A stretch of DNA of 59,273 nt, taken from a virus (Duplodnaviria > Caudoviricetes). Shown here one piece after another: positions 7,126-24,348 of the stretch. A program made the translations under genes and the position numbers. The DNA lies in IMG/VR virus record IMGVR_UViG_3300048610_000026, positions 1 through 59,273 of that record; one strand, given 5' to 3'. How positions within the stretch are numbered: position 1 is the stretch's first letter; the number at the start of each line of letters is the position of its first letter. The notes beneath the pieces were generated by a model. It had not been told where the DNA came from. It worked only from the letters and a program-made list of their open reading frames with translations, and made no database searches.

Positions 7126-8570
7126 CAGAGGTCCTCTGCTGAGACGGGAACGATGCGGCGCTCTGCCTGCACCACGGGTACGCGGGACTCCCGGGCCACG
7201 GTCACCGTCCGGGCCGGGTCCAGCGGCGGGATGACCGGCCCGACCGGTGACGTAGTCCCGGTGGCGGCGAAGGTCGGCGGCCCAACCACAACCGTCGGCA
7301 GGTCGGCCACGAGGGTCCCGCTGAAGGCGGCCCCCGTCACCACGCCAGCAGCAGCGACAGACGGTGGCCCGACCGTGACCGTCGGCAGATCAGCCAGGAC
7401 CGACCCGGCGTACGTCGGTGCGGCCACCACGCCCGCAACGTTGACGGTCGGCGGACCGACCGTGACCTCGGGCAGGCTCGCGACCAGCACGCCCTCGCCC
7501 GGAAGCGTGAACGCCCCGCTCGCCGCCATAGTCGGCGGCCCCACCGTGAGGCTCGGAACGCTGGCGTTCAGGTCACCGCTGTAGGTGGGCGGTGCGATCA
7601 CCCCGGCTGCGGCCATGGTCGGAGGACCGACCGTGACCGGCGGGAGGTCAGCGACCAGCGTGCCGGTGAACAGCGGCGAGCCGGTAGTGCCGCTCGCGGC
7701 CATCGTCGGCGGCCCCACGGTCACGGTCGGTGTCGATGCGTCGAGGTCGCCCGTCCAGGTCGGAGCCGTTACCGTGCCGGAGATGGCTGCGGTCGGCGGC
7801 CCCACGGTCACGGTCGGAGTGCTCGCTGCGACGGATCCGCTGTAGCTGGGTACGCCGACTGTGCCGGAGATGGCTGCGGTCGGAGGACCCACGGTCAGCC
7901 CAGGGGTGGATGCCACCAGCGTGCCGGTGGTGACGACGCCCCCAGCCGGGCGCAGGGCCACGAGGATGGCACCCCACGGCGAGTTGCCGCCGTTGCCTGA
8001 GGCGATGGTGACGTCTCCGGTCGCACCCGTGGCGGCCTGAGCCCTGTCGCCCACCCAGTCGATGGGTCGGTCAGCGCGTTCGGTCCAGCCCGAGGGCGGC
8101 GTGATCGCGTTGCCGTCCCACGAGCCACGGATGGCCTGCAGGAAGGTGTCAGCGGTCACGGTCGAGATCGACAGCGCCAGGGCCGACCCAGTGGTGCCCT
8201 TGTTGGTCGAGGGGGTCACGTCGATCGGGGTCGTCGTGTCGACCTCGGTGTACCCGAAGGTCTGGCCATCGCTCGACGCGGAGGCGTGGGTGAATGCGAA
8301 CGACGTGGCGGGCGAGGACGCCGGGACCACGTAGCGATAGATGGAGAGTCGCACGGACCATCCGTCGATGCCGTCCCCGTAGGTCGTCGTCGCGACCAGG
8401 GTCACGGTCCCGGGCGCCGTGATCACCGGCGCCGTCGAGCCCGCATGACCGGCATTGACGTACATCAGGATGACGTCGTCGGTCGCGGTCCCCGCAGGAA
8501 CGTTGATGGTCGTGGTGGACCGCGTGCCGGTGGTGACAGCGGTCCCGGCCGCCCGGAACGCGATGACCAC
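7125..8570 (-). CDS. virion fibre protein with eight ~29-aa tandem repeats
   Basis: Thr/Ala/Gly-rich; N-terminal beta-rich domain; repeats of G.L.A..P.vTVGPPT.A.SG. Confidence 0.7.
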   Translation of the reverse strand: MVIAFRAAGTAVTTGTRSTTTINVPAGTATDDVILMYVNAGHAGSTAPVITAPGTVTLVATTTYGDGIDGWSVRLSIYRYVVPASSPATSFAFTHASASSDGQTFGYTEVDTTTPIDVTPSTNKGTTGSALALSISTVTADTFLQAIRGSWDGNAITPPSGWTERADRPIDWVGDRAQAATGATGDVTIASGNGGNSPWGAILVALRPAGGVVTTGTLVASTPGLTVGPPTAAISGTVGVPSYSGSVAASTPTVTVGPPTAAISGTVTAPTWTGDLDASTPTVTVGPPTMAASGTTGSPLFTGTLVADLPPVTVGPPTMAAAGVIAPPTYSGDLNASVPSLTVGPPTMAASGAFTLPGEGVLVASLPEVTVGPPTVNVAGVVAAPTYAGSVLADLPTVTVGPPSVAAAGVVTGAAFSGTLVADLPTVVVGPPTFAATGTTSPVGPVIPPLDPARTVTVARESRVPVVQAERRIVPVSAEDL

Positions 8571-8580
8571 GGGTCAGGCC

Positions 8581-9009
8581 CTAGGAGGTAGGTGCAGTGA
8601 CGGGGATGGTGATGACCGGAGCGCCGAGGTCGACCGAGCCGCCGGAGATGATGTCCACGTCGTTGAGCGACAGGTCGCCTGAGCCCGCGCCGACCGAGCC
8701 CTCCATGATGGCGGTGCCACCTGAGGTCTGGATCCGGAAGTACTCAGCGGTGCCGGTGTCAGACGCTGTGACGGCAGCGGGGTTGGACCCGGTGATCTGA
8801 CCAGCAGCCGGGGTGGCCGCCGTCCAGGAAGCGATGGTCACCGAGGCGAGCAGCGTGCCCGTCGCGGCGTTGCCGGGGCCGGGAGCGGCACCGGTGCGGA
8901 TCTGCAGCACGCTGTTGGCGCCGAGCGAGGTGACGAGAGCGTCATCCACGGCGGCGGTTGCGGCATCATCGAGTGCGGTTGCAACGGCAGTTGTGATGAC
9001 GATTGCCAT
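8581..9009 (-). CDS. virion structural (fibre-associated) protein
   Basis: LQIRTGAAP...ATGTLLA...GTAEYFRI...GSVG..SGDL.LN pattern of phage structural proteins. Confidence 0.65.
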   Translation of the reverse strand: MAIVITTAVATALDDAATAAVDDALVTSLGANSVLQIRTGAAPGPGNAATGTLLASVTIASWTAATPAAGQITGSNPAAVTASDTGTAEYFRIQTSGGTAIMEGSVGAGSGDLSLNDVDIISGGSVDLGAPVITIPVTAPTS

Positions 9010-9038
9010 GGTAGGTAACTCCTGAGTCTAGATGCCTC

Positions 9039-9071
9039 AGGGTAGATCAACTATCGAAGGAGAGCCCAACA
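9039..9071 (-). promoter_or_regulatory. putative late promoter TGTTGGGC-N19-TACCCT
   Basis: Same motif and spacing as upstream of the capsid, protease and major tail genes. Confidence 0.6.
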
Positions 9072-9224
9072 GTGGCCAAGAAGATCCCCCAGCCCAAGAA
9101 GCCCAAGAGTTACGGCAAGGAGTCCGGCACGTTCAGCAAGCCGCACCCTGTCCAGCCCGGTGCGTGCAAGCACTGCGGTGCGTACCCGCCCTGCACCCCC
9201 AAGTCCACCAAGTCCACCAAGTAG
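9072..9224 (+). CDS. small basic protein
   Basis: GAAGGAG RBS, GTG start, Lys-rich 50 aa. Confidence 0.55.
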   Translation: MAKKIPQPKKPKSYGKESGTFSKPHPVQPGACKHCGAYPPCTPKSTKSTK

Positions 9225-9235
9225 AGGAGAAGTAG

Positions 9236-9481
9236 ATGTTTGGCAAGAGCAAGCGCCCCGGGAAGTCCGACCCCGTGGTCGTCCAGGCGTACGGCAAGTC
9301 CGGCAAGAAGGAGATCGTCTCGCTGGACTCCCCGAGGGCAGCCCGCAAGTGGCTGAACTCGGTGGGCAAGAAGCACGGGAAGACCCCCGGCGTCACCGTC
9401 GAGGGCACCCCCAACGGCCTGACCGTGAAGGGTCCCGACGGCAAGCCGGTCACCCACTACAACATCGAGAAGGAGAAGTGA
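9236..9481 (+). CDS. small basic hypothetical protein
   Basis: GAGGAG RBS; codon bias. Confidence 0.65.
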   Translation: MFGKSKRPGKSDPVVVQAYGKSGKKEIVSLDSPRAARKWLNSVGKKHGKTPGVTVEGTPNGLTVKGPDGKPVTHYNIEKEK

Positions 9482-9819
9482 TGAAGGAAGAGAAGATGGC
9501 CGCCGCCGCGATCAAGCGCGCGAAACGGCAGAAGTCCAAGCGGAAGAAGCGTCTCCTCGCGAAGAAGGCATTCAACTTCGCGAAGCGGGCCGACCGCAAG
9601 CGTCAGACGGGAGGCTGAGCACGATGCTGGAGTTGCTCAAGTCGATCGGCGACTCGATCGCCGAGAACCTCAAGGCCAGCGCCTACGGCCTGCTGGAGGA
9701 GGCCTTCAAGGCGGGTCAGGAGTACCAGTCCTGGCGACAGGCCGGAGCCCCCGAGGGGTTGGAGGTTCCCGACTTCAAGCAGTGGGCCGCCGAGCGATTC
9801 AAGTAAGAGGAGGAGAAGC

Positions 9820-16852: not shown

Positions 16853-19096
16853 GTGACTGAGAACCGGTCAGAACTCCAGCCGAAGGCAGGAGCACCGTAC
16901 GCGATCGGCGCACGGGAGTACCTCAAGCGAGGCTGGGATTCACCGTTGCCGGTGCCGTACGGCTCCAAGCAACTGGCCGTCTCAGGCTGGACAGGGTACC
17001 GAGGCAAGCGCCCCGACCATGGCCAGGTCAAGCACTGGCTCAACCAGCACGGCGCCGACAACATCGCGATCCGGATGCCCGAGGATGTCATCGGTATCGA
17101 CGTCGATGCGTACGGCGACAAGTACGGCGAACTCACCCTTGACGTGTGGGAGATGTCGATCGGCCCGCTACCCGCGACGTGGCGCTCCACGAGCCGGAAC
17201 CGCGACATCTCCGGCATCTACTGGTTCCGCCTGCCGGAGGAGGCTGTCGGCCTGCACTGGCACGACCTCGGCGGCGACGTCGAGACGATCTCCTGGCACC
17301 ACCGCTACGCCATGGTCTGGCCGAGCATCCACCCGGAGACCGGACAGACGTACGTCTGGTACGACGACTGGGGCAAGCGGGTCGTCGACCCCCCGGCCAA
17401 GGAGGATCTCGCGCTCCTGCCGATGGCGTGGGTGCAGCGGCTGCTGAAGCCCAGCCACGAGGACCGCAGCGCGGTCACGCGCGACACCTCCGGCCACCGC
17501 GACCCGGCGTACGGCGTACGCTCCGACGCGCAGGTCTGGATCGAGCGCTCACTGCAGACCCTCGACGATCTGCCGAACCCCTGGTACCCAGGAGCGTTCT
17601 GGGACCAGACCACCTTCAACGTCGCCTGTGATCTGGTCCGGCTGGCCAACTCCGGCTGGACCGGCTACACCCTGGAGCAGGCGCAGGACGACCTCTTCGC
17701 TCACGCCCCCACCGACGAGGAGTGGACGAACCACGAGGTCGACGCGAAGTGGCGCTCGGCACTGACCGCCGTCGGCGAGGAGGCCCGGCCCGACCCGGTC
17801 GCCGAGGACTTCGAGCCTCTCACCGACGAGGAGCAGGGCGGCTCGCTCTTCGACGCCACACCAGTCTTCCGCCACATCCGCCAGGCCGCGCACTCCCGGG
17901 GGCTCCGCGCGCCGATGGTGCTGCAGAACGTGATGGCGCGGATCCTGCTGGAGGTACCGCCCGGCTGGGTGTTGCCGCCCGTGGTCGGGGCCAAGGCGAG
18001 CCTGAACCTGTTCTTCGCCTCCGTCGGTGTCAGCAGCGCGGGCAAGTCCACCAGCACCGAACTCGCTGGCGAACTGCTTGGGCTCGTGGGCATGGAGCAG
18101 GACCGGCAGATCCTCCCGGTCGGTACGGGCGAGGGGATGGCGGATGCCTTCCTCGACTACGACAACAAGATCGACGGCATGCCGCAGTTGCTCCCGAACC
18201 CGGCGCGGATGTTCACCGCCGACGAGGTGGAGACGCTGAACCAGTTGGTCGACCGGAACGGGTCCACGCTGTCCAGCCTGCTGAAGACGGCAGGCACGGG
18301 CGGCACGCTCGGGCAGGCCAACGCCAAGGCCGGTGGCCGCAACCGGATCGTGCCCCGGGGGCAGTACCGGATGACGATGGTGGTCAACGTGCAGCCGTCG
18401 ATGGCGGCCCCCCTGCTCGACGGCGAGAAGTCCGGTCTGCCGCAGCGCTTCTTGTGGATGAGCGCTGAAGACCCCGAGGCACCGCGCTCGGCGACCGAGG
18501 ACTTCCCGGAGTACCCCGGACCGCTGGACTGGGAGATGCCGGGCGACGGCAGCCCAGAGCGGGTCATCTCCTACTCGAACGAGATCAGGCTGCAGGTCAT
18601 CCAGGCACACCTCGACGAGCAGCACCGTACCGACGGCGGGAAGATGGAGGGTCACCTCAACCTCACCCGCCTGAAGGTTGCCGAGATCTTCGCGATCCTG
18701 CACGGCGAGACCGACATCACCGAGCAGTGGTGGGAGTTGGCTGGCCGGTTCGTCAAGGAGTCGGTGAAGGCCATCGAGATGTGCAAGGAGGCTGTGCTCA
18801 CCGAGGCGGTCGAGGAGAACGTACGCCGTGCGCAGGCCGCAGGTCACGCGCAGGTCATCACCACAGAGATCGTCCAGCAAGACGCCTTGCTGGTGGAGCG
18901 GTGTCGGGGCCGGATCGTCAGCCTCCTGGAGGACTACGAAGGAGAGGTCGTCACCTGGGCGTACTTGCTCAAGCAACTGTCCAAGAGGCAGAAGCAGGTT
19001 GCCGACCGAGCCCGCGAGGCGTTGGAGATCAACGGCGTCATCGAGGTGACGCCAGGTAAGAGGGGCGGGGAGCAGATCACGCTGGCCGCCGAGTAA
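16853..19096 (+). CDS. bifunctional Prim-Pol primase with helicase-like and C-terminal winged-helix domains
   Basis: NIAIR...IGIDVD, WPSIHPETG..Y.W; P-loop GVSSAGKS; DE; SGLPQRFLW. Confidence 0.85.
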   Translation: MTENRSELQPKAGAPYAIGAREYLKRGWDSPLPVPYGSKQLAVSGWTGYRGKRPDHGQVKHWLNQHGADNIAIRMPEDVIGIDVDAYGDKYGELTLDVWEMSIGPLPATWRSTSRNRDISGIYWFRLPEEAVGLHWHDLGGDVETISWHHRYAMVWPSIHPETGQTYVWYDDWGKRVVDPPAKEDLALLPMAWVQRLLKPSHEDRSAVTRDTSGHRDPAYGVRSDAQVWIERSLQTLDDLPNPWYPGAFWDQTTFNVACDLVRLANSGWTGYTLEQAQDDLFAHAPTDEEWTNHEVDAKWRSALTAVGEEARPDPVAEDFEPLTDEEQGGSLFDATPVFRHIRQAAHSRGLRAPMVLQNVMARILLEVPPGWVLPPVVGAKASLNLFFASVGVSSAGKSTSTELAGELLGLVGMEQDRQILPVGTGEGMADAFLDYDNKIDGMPQLLPNPARMFTADEVETLNQLVDRNGSTLSSLLKTAGTGGTLGQANAKAGGRNRIVPRGQYRMTMVVNVQPSMAAPLLDGEKSGLPQRFLWMSAEDPEAPRSATEDFPEYPGPLDWEMPGDGSPERVISYSNEIRLQVIQAHLDEQHRTDGGKMEGHLNLTRLKVAEIFAILHGETDITEQWWELAGRFVKESVKAIEMCKEAVLTEAVEENVRRAQAAGHAQVITTEIVQQDALLVERCRGRIVSLLEDYEGEVVTWAYLLKQLSKRQKQVADRAREALEINGVIEVTPGKRGGEQITLAAE

Positions 19097-19846: not shown

Positions 19847-20104
19847 TAAGGAGAGACATGAGTCACTTTGACGGAGGCGCTGAAGCCCTCCATGACGAGT
19901 ACCAGGCAGCCACGCTGAAGAAAGCAGGCCTGCCGGACCACCTCGAAGTCTCGGAGATGCGCCTGGAGTACGGAATCCAGGACGTCCGGGGGATCAAGTG
20001 GTTTGGTTACGCCAGCCGCGAGTCTGCCGAGGAGTTCTCTGGCGACGGGGACACTATCCTCGTCCGCGAGGTGATCAGCACCGAGTGGCGCGAGGCAACC
20101 CCCC

Positions 20105-20407
20105 GTGAGGACTAGCCAGCGCGAGCGCAGCGCTGAAGCCAAACTGCGTGACGGCGTGAAGAAGCGGCTGGGCGGTCTCGCACTGAAGTTGACCCCTACG
20201 GTTTCTGGTATCCCCGACCGTCTAGCAATCCTGCCCGGCGGCAAGGTCGTCTTCATCGAACTGAAGCGTGAGTCTGGCGGAGTCGTCAGCGAGATTCAGA
20301 AGGTCCAACACGACCGTCTGCGCGCGAAAGGGCATGACGTCGTCGTGCTCCGAGGAACGAAAGAGGTCGAGGCATGGCTGGCCGAGATGGAAGAGGAGAT
20401 GTCTTGA
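20105..20407 (+). CDS. VRR-NUC nuclease
   Basis: GIPDRL..LPGG...FIELK......SEIQ....L...G. Confidence 0.9.
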   Translation: MRTSQRERSAEAKLRDGVKKRLGGLALKLTPTVSGIPDRLAILPGGKVVFIELKRESGGVVSEIQKVQHDRLRAKGHDVVVLRGTKEVEAWLAEMEEEMS

Positions 20408-20916
20408 CCGGCCGACCGAGGATCTACCCCCGCGAGCGAGTGTGCGCTTGGTGTGGTGTCACCTATGAGGGATACCCCGGGAAGCCGAAAGGCGAGAAGA
20501 CCTACTGCAGCCGCGCACACTCAACCGCTGCGAACCGGGCCAAGCCAGGACACCAGCAGACAGCCGGGCAGCAAGGAGGTAAGGTTCGAGGCGAGCAGAT
20601 GTCTACTGCTCGTGAAGCCCGGGGAAACTCGAAGCGACCCCCACCCACGGGGTCTAGAAGTCCTCACGGCATCTCCAACTCCTACCTGAAGAAGGGTGAG
20701 AGGCACATCCATCGTCTCGTAGCCGAAGAGTGTCTAGGTCGGGAACTGCAACCAGGCGAGATCGTCCATCACGAGGACGAAGATAAGTGGAACAACGACC
20801 CGCCCAACCTGATCGTGTTCCCTTCGCAGGCAGTTCACGCCAGGCACCACAAACTGAAGCACTGCGGCAACCCTTGCGATTGCCCCGGAATCCGATTGGA
20901 GGTCCCAAGCCGATGA
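20404..20916 (+). CDS. HNH homing endonuclease
   Basis: HRLVAE..LGR.L...EIVHH.DEDK.NNDP.NL....Q..HARHH. Confidence 0.85.
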   Translation: MTGRPRIYPRERVCAWCGVTYEGYPGKPKGEKTYCSRAHSTAANRAKPGHQQTAGQQGGKVRGEQMSTAREARGNSKRPPPTGSRSPHGISNSYLKKGERHIHRLVAEECLGRELQPGEIVHHEDEDKWNNDPPNLIVFPSQAVHARHHKLKHCGNPCDCPGIRLEVPSR

Positions 20917-22292
20917 CCCGTCCTGAATTGCACGCATACCAGCAGCGCGGAGTAGAGCATCTTCACGCCTACCCCCGCGCCGCGCTTTTTATGGAGCCGG
21001 GTCTCGGTTGACTGTGCAAGACAGCCACCTCGCTCTCGGCGCTGACGACCGAGCACTTTCCTGTGCTGGTGATCGGGCCGAAGCGTGTTGCGATGCGCGT
21101 CTGGCCCGAAGAGGTCGAGAAGTGGCGGCCAGACCTGTCCATCGCGGTCGCGGTCGGCTCCCCGGCCAAGCGGGCGCGGATGCTGGCCAGCAGGGCCGAC
21201 ATCGTGACGATCAGCCAGGACTCGATCAAGGACGTGCCGGAGAAGCACAAGTTCCGCACAGTGATCATCGACGAGAGCCACAACTTCAAGAGCCGGGACA
21301 CCAACCGGTGGCGGCTGGCGAAGAAGATCACCAAGCGTGCCGAGAACGTCTGGCTGCTGACCGGCACGCCGACCGGAAACACCTCGATCGACCTGTGGTC
21401 TCAGGTCTATCTGCTCGACCAAGGTGAGCGGCTCGGCGTGGAGATCGCCGGTCGGAAGAACACCGGAATCACCGCCTTCCGCAACCGCTACTTCAGCCCC
21501 GCGCTGATCCTCGACTCGGGCGTGGTGGCGAAGTGGGAGCCGAAGCCTGGCGCCGATCAGCGCATCTTGGCGTTGATCGGCGACATCTGCCTGTCCATGA
21601 AGGCCGAGGACTACCTCGACATGCCGGACCTGATCACCAACCAGGTCAAGGTCGAGATGCCCCCGGCCGCACAGCGGGCGTACGAGGGCCTGCGCGACAA
21701 TCTGGTGGCTGACCTGGAGATCCTGGGCAGCACCATCCACACGGCGGCCAACGCGGCCGTGCTCACCAACCGGCTGGCTCAGGTCACGGCCGGATTCCTC
21801 TACGGCGACGAGACCAAGGCCGTCACCCGCCTGCACAGCGTCAAGATCGACGCGCTGAAGGAGATCGCCGAGGAGGCCGGGAGTCCACTCCTGGTCTTCT
21901 ACCGCTTCATCGAGGAAGCGAACATGATCCGCGAGACCTTCCTGGAGGCCAAGGGCGTGGACGACCCCGGAGCGCTCGATGACTGGAACCGTGGCCGGGT
22001 TCCGCTGCTCCTGGCCCACCCCAAGTCCGCCGGAGCAGGGCTGAATCTGCAGGCGGGCGGCCACCACATCGTCTGGACGAGCCCGAACTGGTCTCTGATC
22101 GACTACAAGCAGGCGAATGACCGCCTGCACCGCCAGGGCCAGGGGCACCCGGTGGTTGTGCACCACCTCGTGGCCGAGAAGGTCGACCGAGAAGCCATCA
22201 AGGTCGTCCAGGGCAAGAAGACCCTGCTCGAAGCGGTGCTCGACACCCTGGGCGTGGACCCAGACACCTACAACGAAGGAGACGCAGCATGA
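20913..22292 (+). CDS. SNF2-family helicase interrupted by an in-frame TGA within Walker A
   Basis: LHAYQ...LFMEPGLG*LCKT...; DESH, LTGTP and GAGLNLQ...QANDRLHRQGQ motifs, all in one frame. Confidence 0.85.
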
Positions 22293-23065
22293 TCATCAAC
22301 CTGAACATCGATACCCGGGAAGACCTGTCGGAGAACGACAAGGTCGTCCTGCTCGCGCTCGCGGGTGAGATCAGCCTGGCTGAAGGAAAGGCCACCGAGC
22401 CGGTCCAGGAGACCCCGAAGCACACCCCGTCACCCGAGGGCCTCGCGGCCATCGAGCGGGACACGGCTCTGACTGAGACCGAGAGCATCCTCGCCGACTC
22501 AGACACGATGGAGGCCCTCGCCGAGGCCAAGGCTGAGCCCACCCCGGAGCCGGAGAAGGCCCCGAAGAAGGTCAACGTCTCCGAGGCCTCGCTGAAGAAG
22601 TACGGCTTCCACATCGCCGAGAACGGCGACGTCACCTGCGACCACTGCGAGTACGTCTCCGAGACCGGCCGGGCGCTGCACCTGCACGCTGGGACGCACA
22701 AGGACGAGGCCACGAAGCCGACCCTCAAGTCGGTCAAGGACGAGCCGGAGGCAGGCGTAGACGCCTTCCTGGGCTCCGAGGAGCCTTCGGTCGGAGAGGT
22801 CGAGGAGGTCGCCAAGGAGATCCAGGGCGCTCCGGACCCCGAGCCTGAGGTCGTAGAGGCCAAGGTCGTCGAGACGGACCCGAAGGCCCTGCGCGACAAG
22901 GTCGCCAAGGTCGCGACCGCGATGGTCGCGGCGCAGCGTCAGGGCGAGATCCGCAAGGTGCTCGACGAACTCGGCGTGGCCCGGGTCTCGATGGTCGCTG
23001 AGGCGGACCTGCAGAAGTTCCTGGACGCCGAGCCGATCGCCGCGTTCGCCGCCAAGGACGCCTGA
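22289..23065 (+). CDS. acidic replication-module protein with a C2H2-like zinc finger
   Basis: CDHC...HLH motif; typical position before DUF2800. Confidence 0.6.
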   Translation: MIINLNIDTREDLSENDKVVLLALAGEISLAEGKATEPVQETPKHTPSPEGLAAIERDTALTETESILADSDTMEALAEAKAEPTPEPEKAPKKVNVSEASLKKYGFHIAENGDVTCDHCEYVSETGRALHLHAGTHKDEATKPTLKSVKDEPEAGVDAFLGSEEPSVGEVEEVAKEIQGAPDPEPEVVEAKVVETDPKALRDKVAKVATAMVAAQRQGEIRKVLDELGVARVSMVAEADLQKFLDAEPIAAFAAKDA

Positions 23066-23184: not shown

Positions 23185-24348
23185 TTGCCGTCTGAACACG
23201 CTCGGCTGTCTCCCTCGTCGGCTCACCGTTGGATCCACTGCCCGGCCAGCGTTCTCCTCGCGGAGGACGCTGGCCAGGTGCCCGACGAGGACTCGCCGTA
23301 CGCAGCAGAGGGAACCAGGGCGCACACCCTGGCCGAGATCGAGGCTTCGAGGTACTTCGGATGGATCGATGACCTTGAATACAAGCGTCGTCGTGACACC
23401 TGGAAGGCCACGCTCGTCGGCGAGCACGAAGAGCAGGACATGGCCGAGGCCGCCGAAGGCTACATCACGCTGATCCAGGCAGTGGTCGACGCCAACCCGG
23501 GCGCGGTCGTCCTGCTGGAGCAGCGGATGGACACCGGGGTCCCCTCCTGCTGGGGGACCGGCGACACCGTGGTCATCGCTCCAGGCCTGATCCACGTGAT
23601 CGACCTGAAGTACGGCACCGGTGTCGAGGTCTACGCCGAGGACAACGAGCAGTTGATGCTCTACGGGGTCGGCGCGTTGGACACCTTCGACATCATCGGC
23701 GAGGTCGACGACGTCTGCGTACAGATCTACCAGCCGCGCCGCAACCACGTGGACACCTACTGTCTCTCGGCTGCCGAACTCCGGGCCTGGCGCGACAGCG
23801 TCATCCCGATCGCCGAGGCAGCGCTGCAGGGGGGCGCTGAGTTCGGCCCGAGCGAGGAGGCCTGCCGCTGGTGCCCGGTCGCCGGGGAGTGCTCGGCGCG
23901 GGCCCGCTTCGTCGCGACTCGTGACTTCGGCGAGCCGACCCTGCTCGATCCCGAGCAGTTGGCGGAGGCTGTGGCGCAGATCCCGAACATCCGCCGCTGG
24001 TGCCAGCAGGTGGAAGAGCGAGCGCTGACCAAGGCCTACCAGGACGGCGTCACCATCCCAGGCTTCAAGGTGGTGCGGTCCAACGGCCGCCGTCAGATCA
24101 AGGACGACGCGCTGGCGATCCAGACGCTGATCGACAACGGGTTCAAAGCTGAGCAGGTCGCGAACTTCTCGGTGAAGGCGTTCGGCGACCTGGAGCGGCT
24201 GCTGCCGAAGGACGAACTGAACCTCCTGCTCGGCGACATCATCACCAAGACCGAGGGGAAGCCCTCACTCGTCCCGCTCGACGACAAGCGGGAGCCCATC
24301 AACGCACTGGAGGAAGAGAGCAAGGTGTTCGGAGTGATCGAGCAGTGA
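23185..24348 (+). CDS. DUF2800 Cas4/RecB-like exonuclease
   Basis: HARLSPSSAHRW..CP.S; WGTGD; IDLKYG.G; QLMLY; CRWCP..C.AR. Confidence 0.9.
   Translation: MPSEHARLSPSSAHRWIHCPASVLLAEDAGQVPDEDSPYAAEGTRAHTLAEIEASRYFGWIDDLEYKRRRDTWKATLVGEHEEQDMAEAAEGYITLIQAVVDANPGAVVLLEQRMDTGVPSCWGTGDTVVIAPGLIHVIDLKYGTGVEVYAEDNEQLMLYGVGALDTFDIIGEVDDVCVQIYQPRRNHVDTYCLSAAELRAWRDSVIPIAEAALQGGAEFGPSEEACRWCPVAGECSARARFVATRDFGEPTLLDPEQLAEAVAQIPNIRRWCQQVEERALTKAYQDGVTIPGFKVVRSNGRRQIKDDALAIQTLIDNGFKAEQVANFSVKAFGDLERLLPKDELNLLLGDIITKTEGKPSLVPLDDKREPINALEEESKVFGVIEQ

Follow-up and report, generated by a model that had tools for sequence, protein, structure and literature searches.

A gap opening with a stop codon recurs in the P-loop of phage SNF2 helicase genes and is a candidate for short translational bypassing

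Efficient natural translational bypassing has so far been almost wholly that of T4 gene 60 and its homologues. A preprint by Manning & Atkins (10.1101/2022.08.31.505936) describes the 50-nt gap in T4 gene 60 as belonging to the MobA HNH element, which the gap shields from nicking, and as frequently remaining after the endonuclease has been lost. Synthetic constructs in E. coli have demonstrated much shorter events, the stop-hops, with a single amino acid specified by 9 nt (Atkins et al. 2016, PMC5009743; cited also in 10.1101/2024.12.09.627546), and the 2016 review states that no natural in-frame stop-hop was known. The same review describes 81 bypassed inserts (byps) across 12 of the 15 mitochondrial genes of one genome, that of Magnusiomyces capitatus, and a likely bypass in Streptomyces phage Hau3's terminase gene. 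The stretch of DNA analyzed here (the window) is a complete IMG/VR virus record of 59,273 bp with a G+C content of 65% (IMGVR_UViG_3300048610_000026), which represents a soil phage. Its SNF2 helicase gene is interrupted within the P-loop by a 9-nt gap that begins with a stop codon. The 9 nt probably constitute a short programmed translational bypass of the stop-hop type, with take-off at GGT and landing at TGC, which would restore the motif GLGKT.

The SNF2 gene starts with an ATG (20913-20915) that overlaps the TGA (20914-20916) of the upstream HNH open reading frame (ORF). Codons 27 to 36 are ATG GAG CCG GGT CTC GGT TGA CTG TGC AAG, encoding M E P G L G, a stop, and L C K. The stop inside the P-loop is the TGA at 21009-21011, after which the same frame remains open until the gene's own TGA at 22290-22292. 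The parts of the gene, with the evidence for its two segments, are as follows.

20913-21008, plus strand: SNF2 segment 1, Met1 to Gly32, covering the Q-motif region and, as MEPGLG, the P-loop's first half; sequence and alignment
21006-21008, plus strand: proposed take-off codon GGT (Gly32), the last sense codon ahead of the stop
21009-21017, plus strand: 9-nt coding gap TGA CTG TGC, opening with the stop TGA (21009-21011), whose context, TGA-C, looks weak
21015-21017, plus strand: proposed landing codon TGC, near-cognate, inside the 9-nt gap
21018-22292, plus strand: SNF2 segment 2, from the P-loop Lys-Thr through DESH and Helicase_C to the stop TGA (22290-22292); Pfam matches and the ratio of nonsynonymous to synonymous substitutions (dN/dS)

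When the nearest proteins are aligned (20 rows), the site is spanned by 16 of the other 19 rows, all 16 of which show an ungapped G-K-T, and the remaining 3 begin downstream. Since the relatives carry an uninterrupted GLGKT in 16 of 16 cases, exactly 9 nt are surplus in the window, namely, 21009-21017 or an equal length displaced by 1 to 2 nt. A continuous motif I (G-x-G-K-T) is absent from any single frame of the window gene and exists solely if the 9 nt are skipped. When translated through the stop (with X at that position), the gene matches the Pfam domain SNF2-rel_dom (PF00176) with 57.5 bits against a cutoff of 24.9, and a six-frame search found this to be the single PF00176 match in the window genome (58.8 bits, with 1 TGA inside). 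It also matches Helicase_C (PF00271; 24.4 bits against a cutoff of 23.5), and the DExH motif II is seen as IIDESHNF. The G+C content at third codon positions (GC3) is 0.625 in the 96 nt ahead of the break and 0.652 in the HNH gene, versus 0.894 in the remainder of SNF2, where in-frame 96-nt windows average 0.907 (standard deviation, 0.053; minimum, 0.781). An original prediction made on this DNA, that a 9-nt insert with a TGA at 21009-21011 splits the Walker A motif of an otherwise intact gene and is preceded by atypical, HNH-like codon usage that returns to normal behind it, is thus confirmed in all of these parts.

The 9 nt are also found in other data sets. Ten public sequencing runs hold part of 20000-23000, none of them listed as an RNA run, and contigs of four (X2, X3, X4, and X5) were compared with the window, at a level at which minority variants would escape notice. 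The Logan contig of X2 (2,263 nt) equals window 20250-21250 and that of X3 (856 nt) equals window 20256-21111, each with 0 differences and 0 gaps, and hence a second, independent assembler reproduced the 9-nt allele. Both are soil runs and may share a source campaign with the window record. The break site lies outside the coverage of the X4 and X5 contigs. One 151-nt Logan contig of X4 is folded back to the opposite strand at 20944/20980 (window 20937-20980) and is probably a low-depth assembly artifact.

The layout resembles that of T4 gene 60 with MobA in several respects. In both, a Gly take-off codon is followed directly by a stop (GGT at 21006-21008 and TGA at 21009-21011 in the window), an HNH gene lies just upstream, the N-terminal segment is short (32 codons in the window and 44 to 46 in T4), and the gap falls within highly conserved enzyme-coding DNA. 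In the SNF2 family, as in T4, the endonuclease is often absent while the gap persists. Unlike the 50-nt gap of T4, that of the window is 9 nt long (4 to 13 nt in relatives), has no significant stem-loop, and has an unmatched landing codon. Moreover, the enzyme is an SNF2 helicase instead of a topoisomerase, and the HNH gene of the window precedes the helicase gene and does not split it. The window endonuclease is assigned to Pfam HNH_3 by profile match, and it is likened to MobA here by its position.

The break recurs across phages and prophages. Every SNF2 ORF in 238 fetched loci was classified, which gave 135 distinct ORFs: 112 with G.GK[TS] in frame, 3 cut by the locus end, and 20 broken at the P-loop, or 20 of 132 when the cut genes are left aside. 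In 19 of the 20 broken genes, a stop immediately follows a GL or GLG codon, and 1 to 9 nt farther on comes (G)KT, with the frame then open for over 410 codons. Examples are GGT TGA GGC, GGT TA GGT, CTT TGACCG CTT, and GGA TAGCGCCCT GGT. The twentieth, on a metagenome contig (L085:100-160; ~44% identity to the window protein), differs by one additional T (CTT T GGC), which is not directly followed by a stop. No insertion of sense codons alone was found at the P-loop among the broken genes of the 135 ORFs, and no other kind of lesion was found elsewhere in the 20 broken genes.

Motif scans extended this sample. FLDMGLG followed by TGA was sought in IMG/VR and in one bacterial genome per species, and FLDMGLG followed by TAA was sought in IMG/VR. 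A locus was counted as resuming when K[TS] was followed by a long ORF (at least 150 amino acids in the TGA scan of IMG/VR) or by an ORF running off the locus end.

FLDMGLG-TGA, IMG/VR: 117 stretches, of which 78 of the 80 listed resume at K[TS] after 4 to 10 nt
FLDMGLG-TGA, one genome per species: 83 stretches, of which 67 of the 80 listed resume at K[TS] after 4 to 13 nt
FLDMGLG-TAA, IMG/VR: 50 stretches, of which 49 resume

At least 8 of the 13 genome-scan loci without resumption resemble chance matches. The scan for the intact motif gave at least 106 stretches, a lower bound from which no ratio of broken to intact genes can be drawn. The TAA matches also led to the rejection of an apparent avoidance of TAA at the site (0 of 19 stops in the homology sample). 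Among the listed FLDMGLG-TGA loci of IMG/VR, gaps of 4, 5, 6, 7, 8, 9, and 10 nt occur 22, 14, 28, 5, 2, 5, and 2 times, respectively. Listed resuming loci with gap lengths of 0, 1, and 2 modulo 3 number 33, 29, and 16 in IMG/VR and 27, 27, and 13 in the genomes, which means that all three frames are represented. The take-off codon is GGN in every scanned case in which the stop follows GLG. The landing codon of gaps of at least 6 nt is GGN in 40 of 42 cases in IMG/VR and 39 of 43 in the genomes (79 of 85 in total), while the type found in the window, xGY, accounts for 2 of 42 and 3 of 43 (5 of 85). In 4- and 5-nt gaps, the free positions ahead of Lys are always Y or GY. Three IMG/VR loci (L554, L562, and L575) have GGG T AAA, in which the extra T makes a TAA, and these, together with L085, are plain +1 versions of the same P-loop site.

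The genome matches include prophages of cultured Streptococcus porci, Streptococcus pluranimalium, Dorea acetigenes, Succiniclasticum ruminis, Clostridium algidicarnis, Faecalicatena contorta, and Acidaminococcus fermentans. In S. porci, the copy belongs to Streptococcus phage Javan422 (L545; MK448934.1, positions 8240-9535), with FLDMGLG-TGA and a 7-nt gap, and its "DNA helicase" coding sequence in GenBank bears no recoding note. Judging from this record, helicases of this kind seem to enter public protein sets truncated or mis-started. With 20 of 135 SNF2 genes and more than 100 motif matches broken at the same spot, the lesion is not unique to the window genome; the original prediction had named such uniqueness as a finding that would count against it.

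The nearest relatives of the window locus show the same break in other forms. A megablast search with 20300-22300 gave no match among phage records, and scans of viral and metagenome contigs gave a single contig above 50% identity, L002 (identical to L082 and L161). This contig of 58.5 kb shares 94% amino acid identity with the downstream part of the window SNF2 protein. It has no HNH gene, which is missing as a clean alignment gap, and its SNF2 gene directly follows the VRR-NUC gene. Its site reads ATG GAG CCA GGT CTT [TGACCTC] GGC AAA ACT, i.e., a 7-nt gap after Gly-Leu, with a Leu codon on either side (CTT and CTC) and a downstream ORF that occupies a different (+1) frame. The relatives P0003 to P0016 (78 to 92% identity) are known as proteins alone. 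The start of P0004 (92% identity) coincides with the internal Met that begins the 409-amino-acid ORF assigned by gene callers to the window SNF2 (from GTG 21063), and P0005 (84% identity) has the N terminus MSLGFDLGKTA, which corresponds to the downstream frame of a 7-nt-type gap. Other protein relatives, at 78 to 85% identity, are intact. Six protein clusters with intact GLGKT, P0007 to P0011 (82%) and P0016 (78%), have been assigned a start at the Met of MEPGLGKT and are without the 24 N-terminal residues present in P0003, P0012, P0013, and P0015. These short N termini may reflect the choice of the gene caller or a further break upstream.

Both halves of the broken genes are under purifying selection. 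By the Nei-Gojobori method (own script), dN/dS was 0.05 to 0.19 in 14 of 15 computable pairs, counting both gene halves together. For the downstream part, pairs of broken genes gave 0.05 to 0.14 in 10 of 11 cases, the exception being L003-L094 (0.295), and the window and L002 gave 0.114 at a dS of 0.33. For the upstream segment (29 to 31 codons before the stop), dN/dS was 0.08 to 0.19 in 4 pairs, and a fifth pair was saturated. Segment 1 of the window and that of L002 differ with a pN of 0.176 and a pS of 0.568, which also indicates purifying selection. Two clades consist of broken genes only: in L027/L102/L104, dS reaches ~1, and in L044/L143/L156/L040/L146, dS is ~1.4 to 2.1 while the gap varies among +6, +7, and +8. 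Purifying selection on both halves indicates that each is read as protein in its own frame, and it speaks against a recent pseudogene, which the original prediction had allowed for.

The following course is proposed for the stop-hop. The ribosome would translate 32 codons and pause with peptidyl-tRNA-Gly on GGU and a poorly terminating UGA-C in the A site. The mRNA would then slide by 9 nt, the anticodon would re-pair on the near-cognate UGC through codon positions 2 and 3, and decoding would resume at AAG ACA, so that the SNF2 helicase would be full length, with a normal GLGKT P-loop. A hop that leaves the take-off codon and lands on the triplet preceding Lys yields GLGKT in every resuming locus. 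Since the gaps occur in all three frames, only a hop gives GLGKT throughout, which neither read-through nor frameshifting in one direction can do. The three-frame gaps and the selection on both halves together favor a frame-blind hop over read-through, frameshifting, and a pseudogene. A gap of only 9 nt leaves no room for an internal Shine-Dalgarno sequence. The GGU-to-UGC hop put forward in the original prediction is thus strengthened by the recurrence, the three frames, the selection, and the presence of the xGY landing class in other loci, while the event itself and its efficiency are predicted from sequence.

Compared with the synthetic stop-hops, the SNF2 sites agree in that a peptidyl-tRNA would leave the codon before the stop and re-pair a few nucleotides on with no special stimulators, and the synthetic layout is that of the commonest SNF2 relatives (GGY TGA GGN and GGT TAA GGA). 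They differ in that the synthetic stop-hops are engineered and low level, whereas the SNF2 layout is natural, widespread, and under selection, and in that the gap of the window spans two extra codons and has a near-cognate landing. The byps and Hau3 are similar as short inserts in essential genes that are "corrected" in translation, with take-off and landing sometimes imperfectly matched, and Hau3 also shares the high-GC actinophage setting. However, they concern different genes and sites, while in SNF2 one site of one gene family is affected in many phages. In a literature search, with subscription journals and supplementary files outside its reach, no published account of a gap in a helicase P-loop was found.

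Several observations weigh against a hop in the window or across the family. The landing codon TGC is identical to the take-off codon GGT at positions 2 and 3 only, with no full match, and this near-cognate type is a rare class (5 of 85), so the hop in the window may be inefficient. The RNA fold of 20975-21065 (-33.4 kcal/mol; z = -1.37) is not significant, as 22 of 200 shuffled sequences are as good. Short hops without stimulation are described as low level in 10.1101/2024.12.09.627546. The gaps of L128 and L145 are perfect 5-nt tandem duplications (TTAGG), which are also compatible with inactivation of the gene at an indel hot spot. On a FastTree phylogeny of 132 rows, the broken state changes 13 times, with 12 changes forced by well-supported branches, and several broken genes have close intact sisters.

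The tree pattern is consistent with repeated gain and loss of the gap, which is the main support for the strongest alternative, that of an OFF allele or repair scar. According to this explanation, the P-loop DNA is an indel hot spot, through nuclease cutting with imprecise repair or through slipped-strand duplication. A conditionally dispensable helicase would be inactivated, and precise loss of the insert would reactivate it, so that the ORF never decays. Besides the at least 12 to 13 changes of state and the TTAGG duplications, the enrichment of HNH genes at broken loci (see below) could reflect such cutting. An intact subclade (L116, L119, L038, and L131) is nested among the broken L040, L146, L044, L143, and L156, a position that would need precise gap loss or recombination with an intact allele. 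However, the majority of gaps are not duplicates of flanking sequence. All in-frame gaps open with a stop, and of 85 gaps of at least 6 nt, 79 have a landing codon that agrees with the take-off codon, a match that an OFF allele does not need. In addition, the all-broken clades maintain a dN/dS of 0.05 to 0.14 up to a dS of ~1 to 2, with no other type of lesion elsewhere in the 20 broken genes. An OFF allele is therefore considered unlikely, although it is the most serious of the alternatives.

Conventional recoding, with a mechanism for each allele, is less likely still. Here, UGA-C would be read through in the window (GLG-x-LC-KT), out-of-frame relatives would undergo +1 or +2 frameshifting, and the P-loops would contain 1 to 3 extra residues. 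Points in favor are the in-frame position of the window gap and the weakness of TGA-C as a stop context. CUU UGA C is the programmed +1 frameshift motif of RF2 (prfB), and L002 carries CTT TGA C, which we take to be this heptamer. The window shares with prfB a UGA-C in the A site after a P-site codon ending in U. The N terminus of P0005 and the three IMG/VR loci with GGG T AAA, in which +1 slippage re-pairs on GGT, also fit recoding. Nevertheless, at least three mechanisms would be needed at one site, each yielding a distinct noncanonical P-loop, and the window product would have CKT in place of GKT, while 112 of 112 intact relatives keep G.GK[TS]. Unlike the case of prfB, the window gap is in frame, GGU does not slip by +1, and the SNF2 family uses three frames. 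For the window, a prfB-type +1 frameshift was rejected, as its downstream ORF stays in frame 0 and re-pairing is impossible at GGT T. Stop reassignment or suppressor read-through was likewise rejected, as TGA is an ordinary stop that ends the HNH and SNF2 ORFs of the window and ARAGORN found 0 tRNA genes in it, and thus no suppressor tRNA.

Production of two proteins is highly improbable. Termination at the TGA would be followed by a restart just downstream or by an independent start at GTG 21063, giving a 32-residue peptide and a helicase body with half a P-loop or none. Gene callers do predict the ORF from GTG 21063, and an in-frame CTG directly follows the stop. However, the region from the stop to the first ATG/GTG/TTG, KTATSLSALTTEHFP, is conserved, a start codon is missing behind the gap in most relatives, and purifying selection acts on the 32 upstream codons as well. 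We know of no split P-loop that works.

Least credible are an error of assembly (raised in the original prediction) or of sequencing and excision of the 9 nt from the RNA (likewise raised there), since a second assembler's contigs from two other runs (X2 and X3) hold the identical 9 nt, genomes of cultured isolates bear the same type of gap, nothing was found in favor of RNA-level excision, and we know of no mechanism that takes 4 to 13 nt out of bacterial mRNA.

The proposed stop-hop is probably tied to a homing endonuclease cassette. The neighboring features concerned are as follows.

20105-20407, plus strand: VRR-NUC-like ORF, the usual upstream neighbor of SNF2 in this phage family; Pfam VRR_NUC with an E value of 0.0019 and 18.7 bits, below the cutoff of 23.8
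20374-20916, plus strand: HNH_3 endonuclease ORF, inserted between VRR-NUC and SNF2; PF13392 with an E value of 5.9e-9 and 35.9 bits against a cutoff of 24.8
19987-21126, no strand: tract of reduced identity to L002 on both flanks of the HNH insert, ~68 to 80% per 60 nt versus 88 to 98% farther out

The L002 orthologue of the VRR-NUC-like ORF matches VRR_NUC with 23.9 bits, and 4 more upstream neighbors of SNF2 match below the cutoff. In three distant lineages, represented by the window, L027, and L128, an HNH_3 gene adjoins the start of SNF2. When loci with an upstream flank of 700 nt or more were compared, with detection by relatives of three HNH_3 proteins only, this arrangement was found at 3 of 16 broken versus 1 of 94 intact loci (Fisher p = 0.0094). 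The association rests on 4 loci that are phylogenetically nonindependent, a further point against this explanation. The gap occurs without HNH in L002 and in 12 other broken loci with sufficient flank. GC3 of segment 1 is HNH-like in the window and is low also in the HNH-less L002 (0.55 versus 0.86 downstream). The HNH link of the original prediction is therefore upheld as an enrichment, but it is modest, and the HNH gene is not needed, as the closest relative has the gap without it. The tract of lowered identity would be compatible with recombination or co-conversion around a homing cassette. No cassette boundary is visible between L128 and its intact sister L026, which are 70 to 80% identical throughout. 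By analogy with T4 gene 60, the gap may be the right-hand part of an HNH_3 homing endonuclease cassette, one that breaks the likely target (the P-loop DNA) and leaves the protein unchanged. Whether the family as a whole represents the first natural stop-hop of this breadth is, in our judgment, evenly balanced. It would be a frame-blind hop of 1 to 13 nt over a stop in the middle of the P-loop, often gained and lost, and an immunity scar that hides conserved DNA from HNH homing endonucleases with the protein unchanged.

The SNF2 gene lies in a replication module with the order Prim-Pol/DUF3987 (16853-19096), VRR-NUC, HNH, SNF2, and DUF2800/PD-(D/E)XK (23185-24348). ATGA overlaps are present at both ends of SNF2, at 20913-20916 with HNH and at 22289-22292 with the next gene, which suggests translational coupling along the module.

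With hundreds of phages and prophages carrying the site, gaps of 1 to 13 nt, and varied landing codons, the family provides a natural mutagenesis series for the rules of short hops. Copies in culturable hosts (Streptococcus porci DSM 23759, Succiniclasticum ruminis DSM 9236, and Clostridium algidicarnis DSM 15099) allow direct testing. If the bypass is real, gene callers systematically misannotate these helicases as N-terminally truncated proteins without a P-loop, as the 409-amino-acid call in the window and the Javan422 record without a recoding note exemplify. The finding bears on the coevolution of homing endonucleases and their targets, and, if true, short-range bypassing would be a general, evolvable escape route rather than a curiosity of T4.

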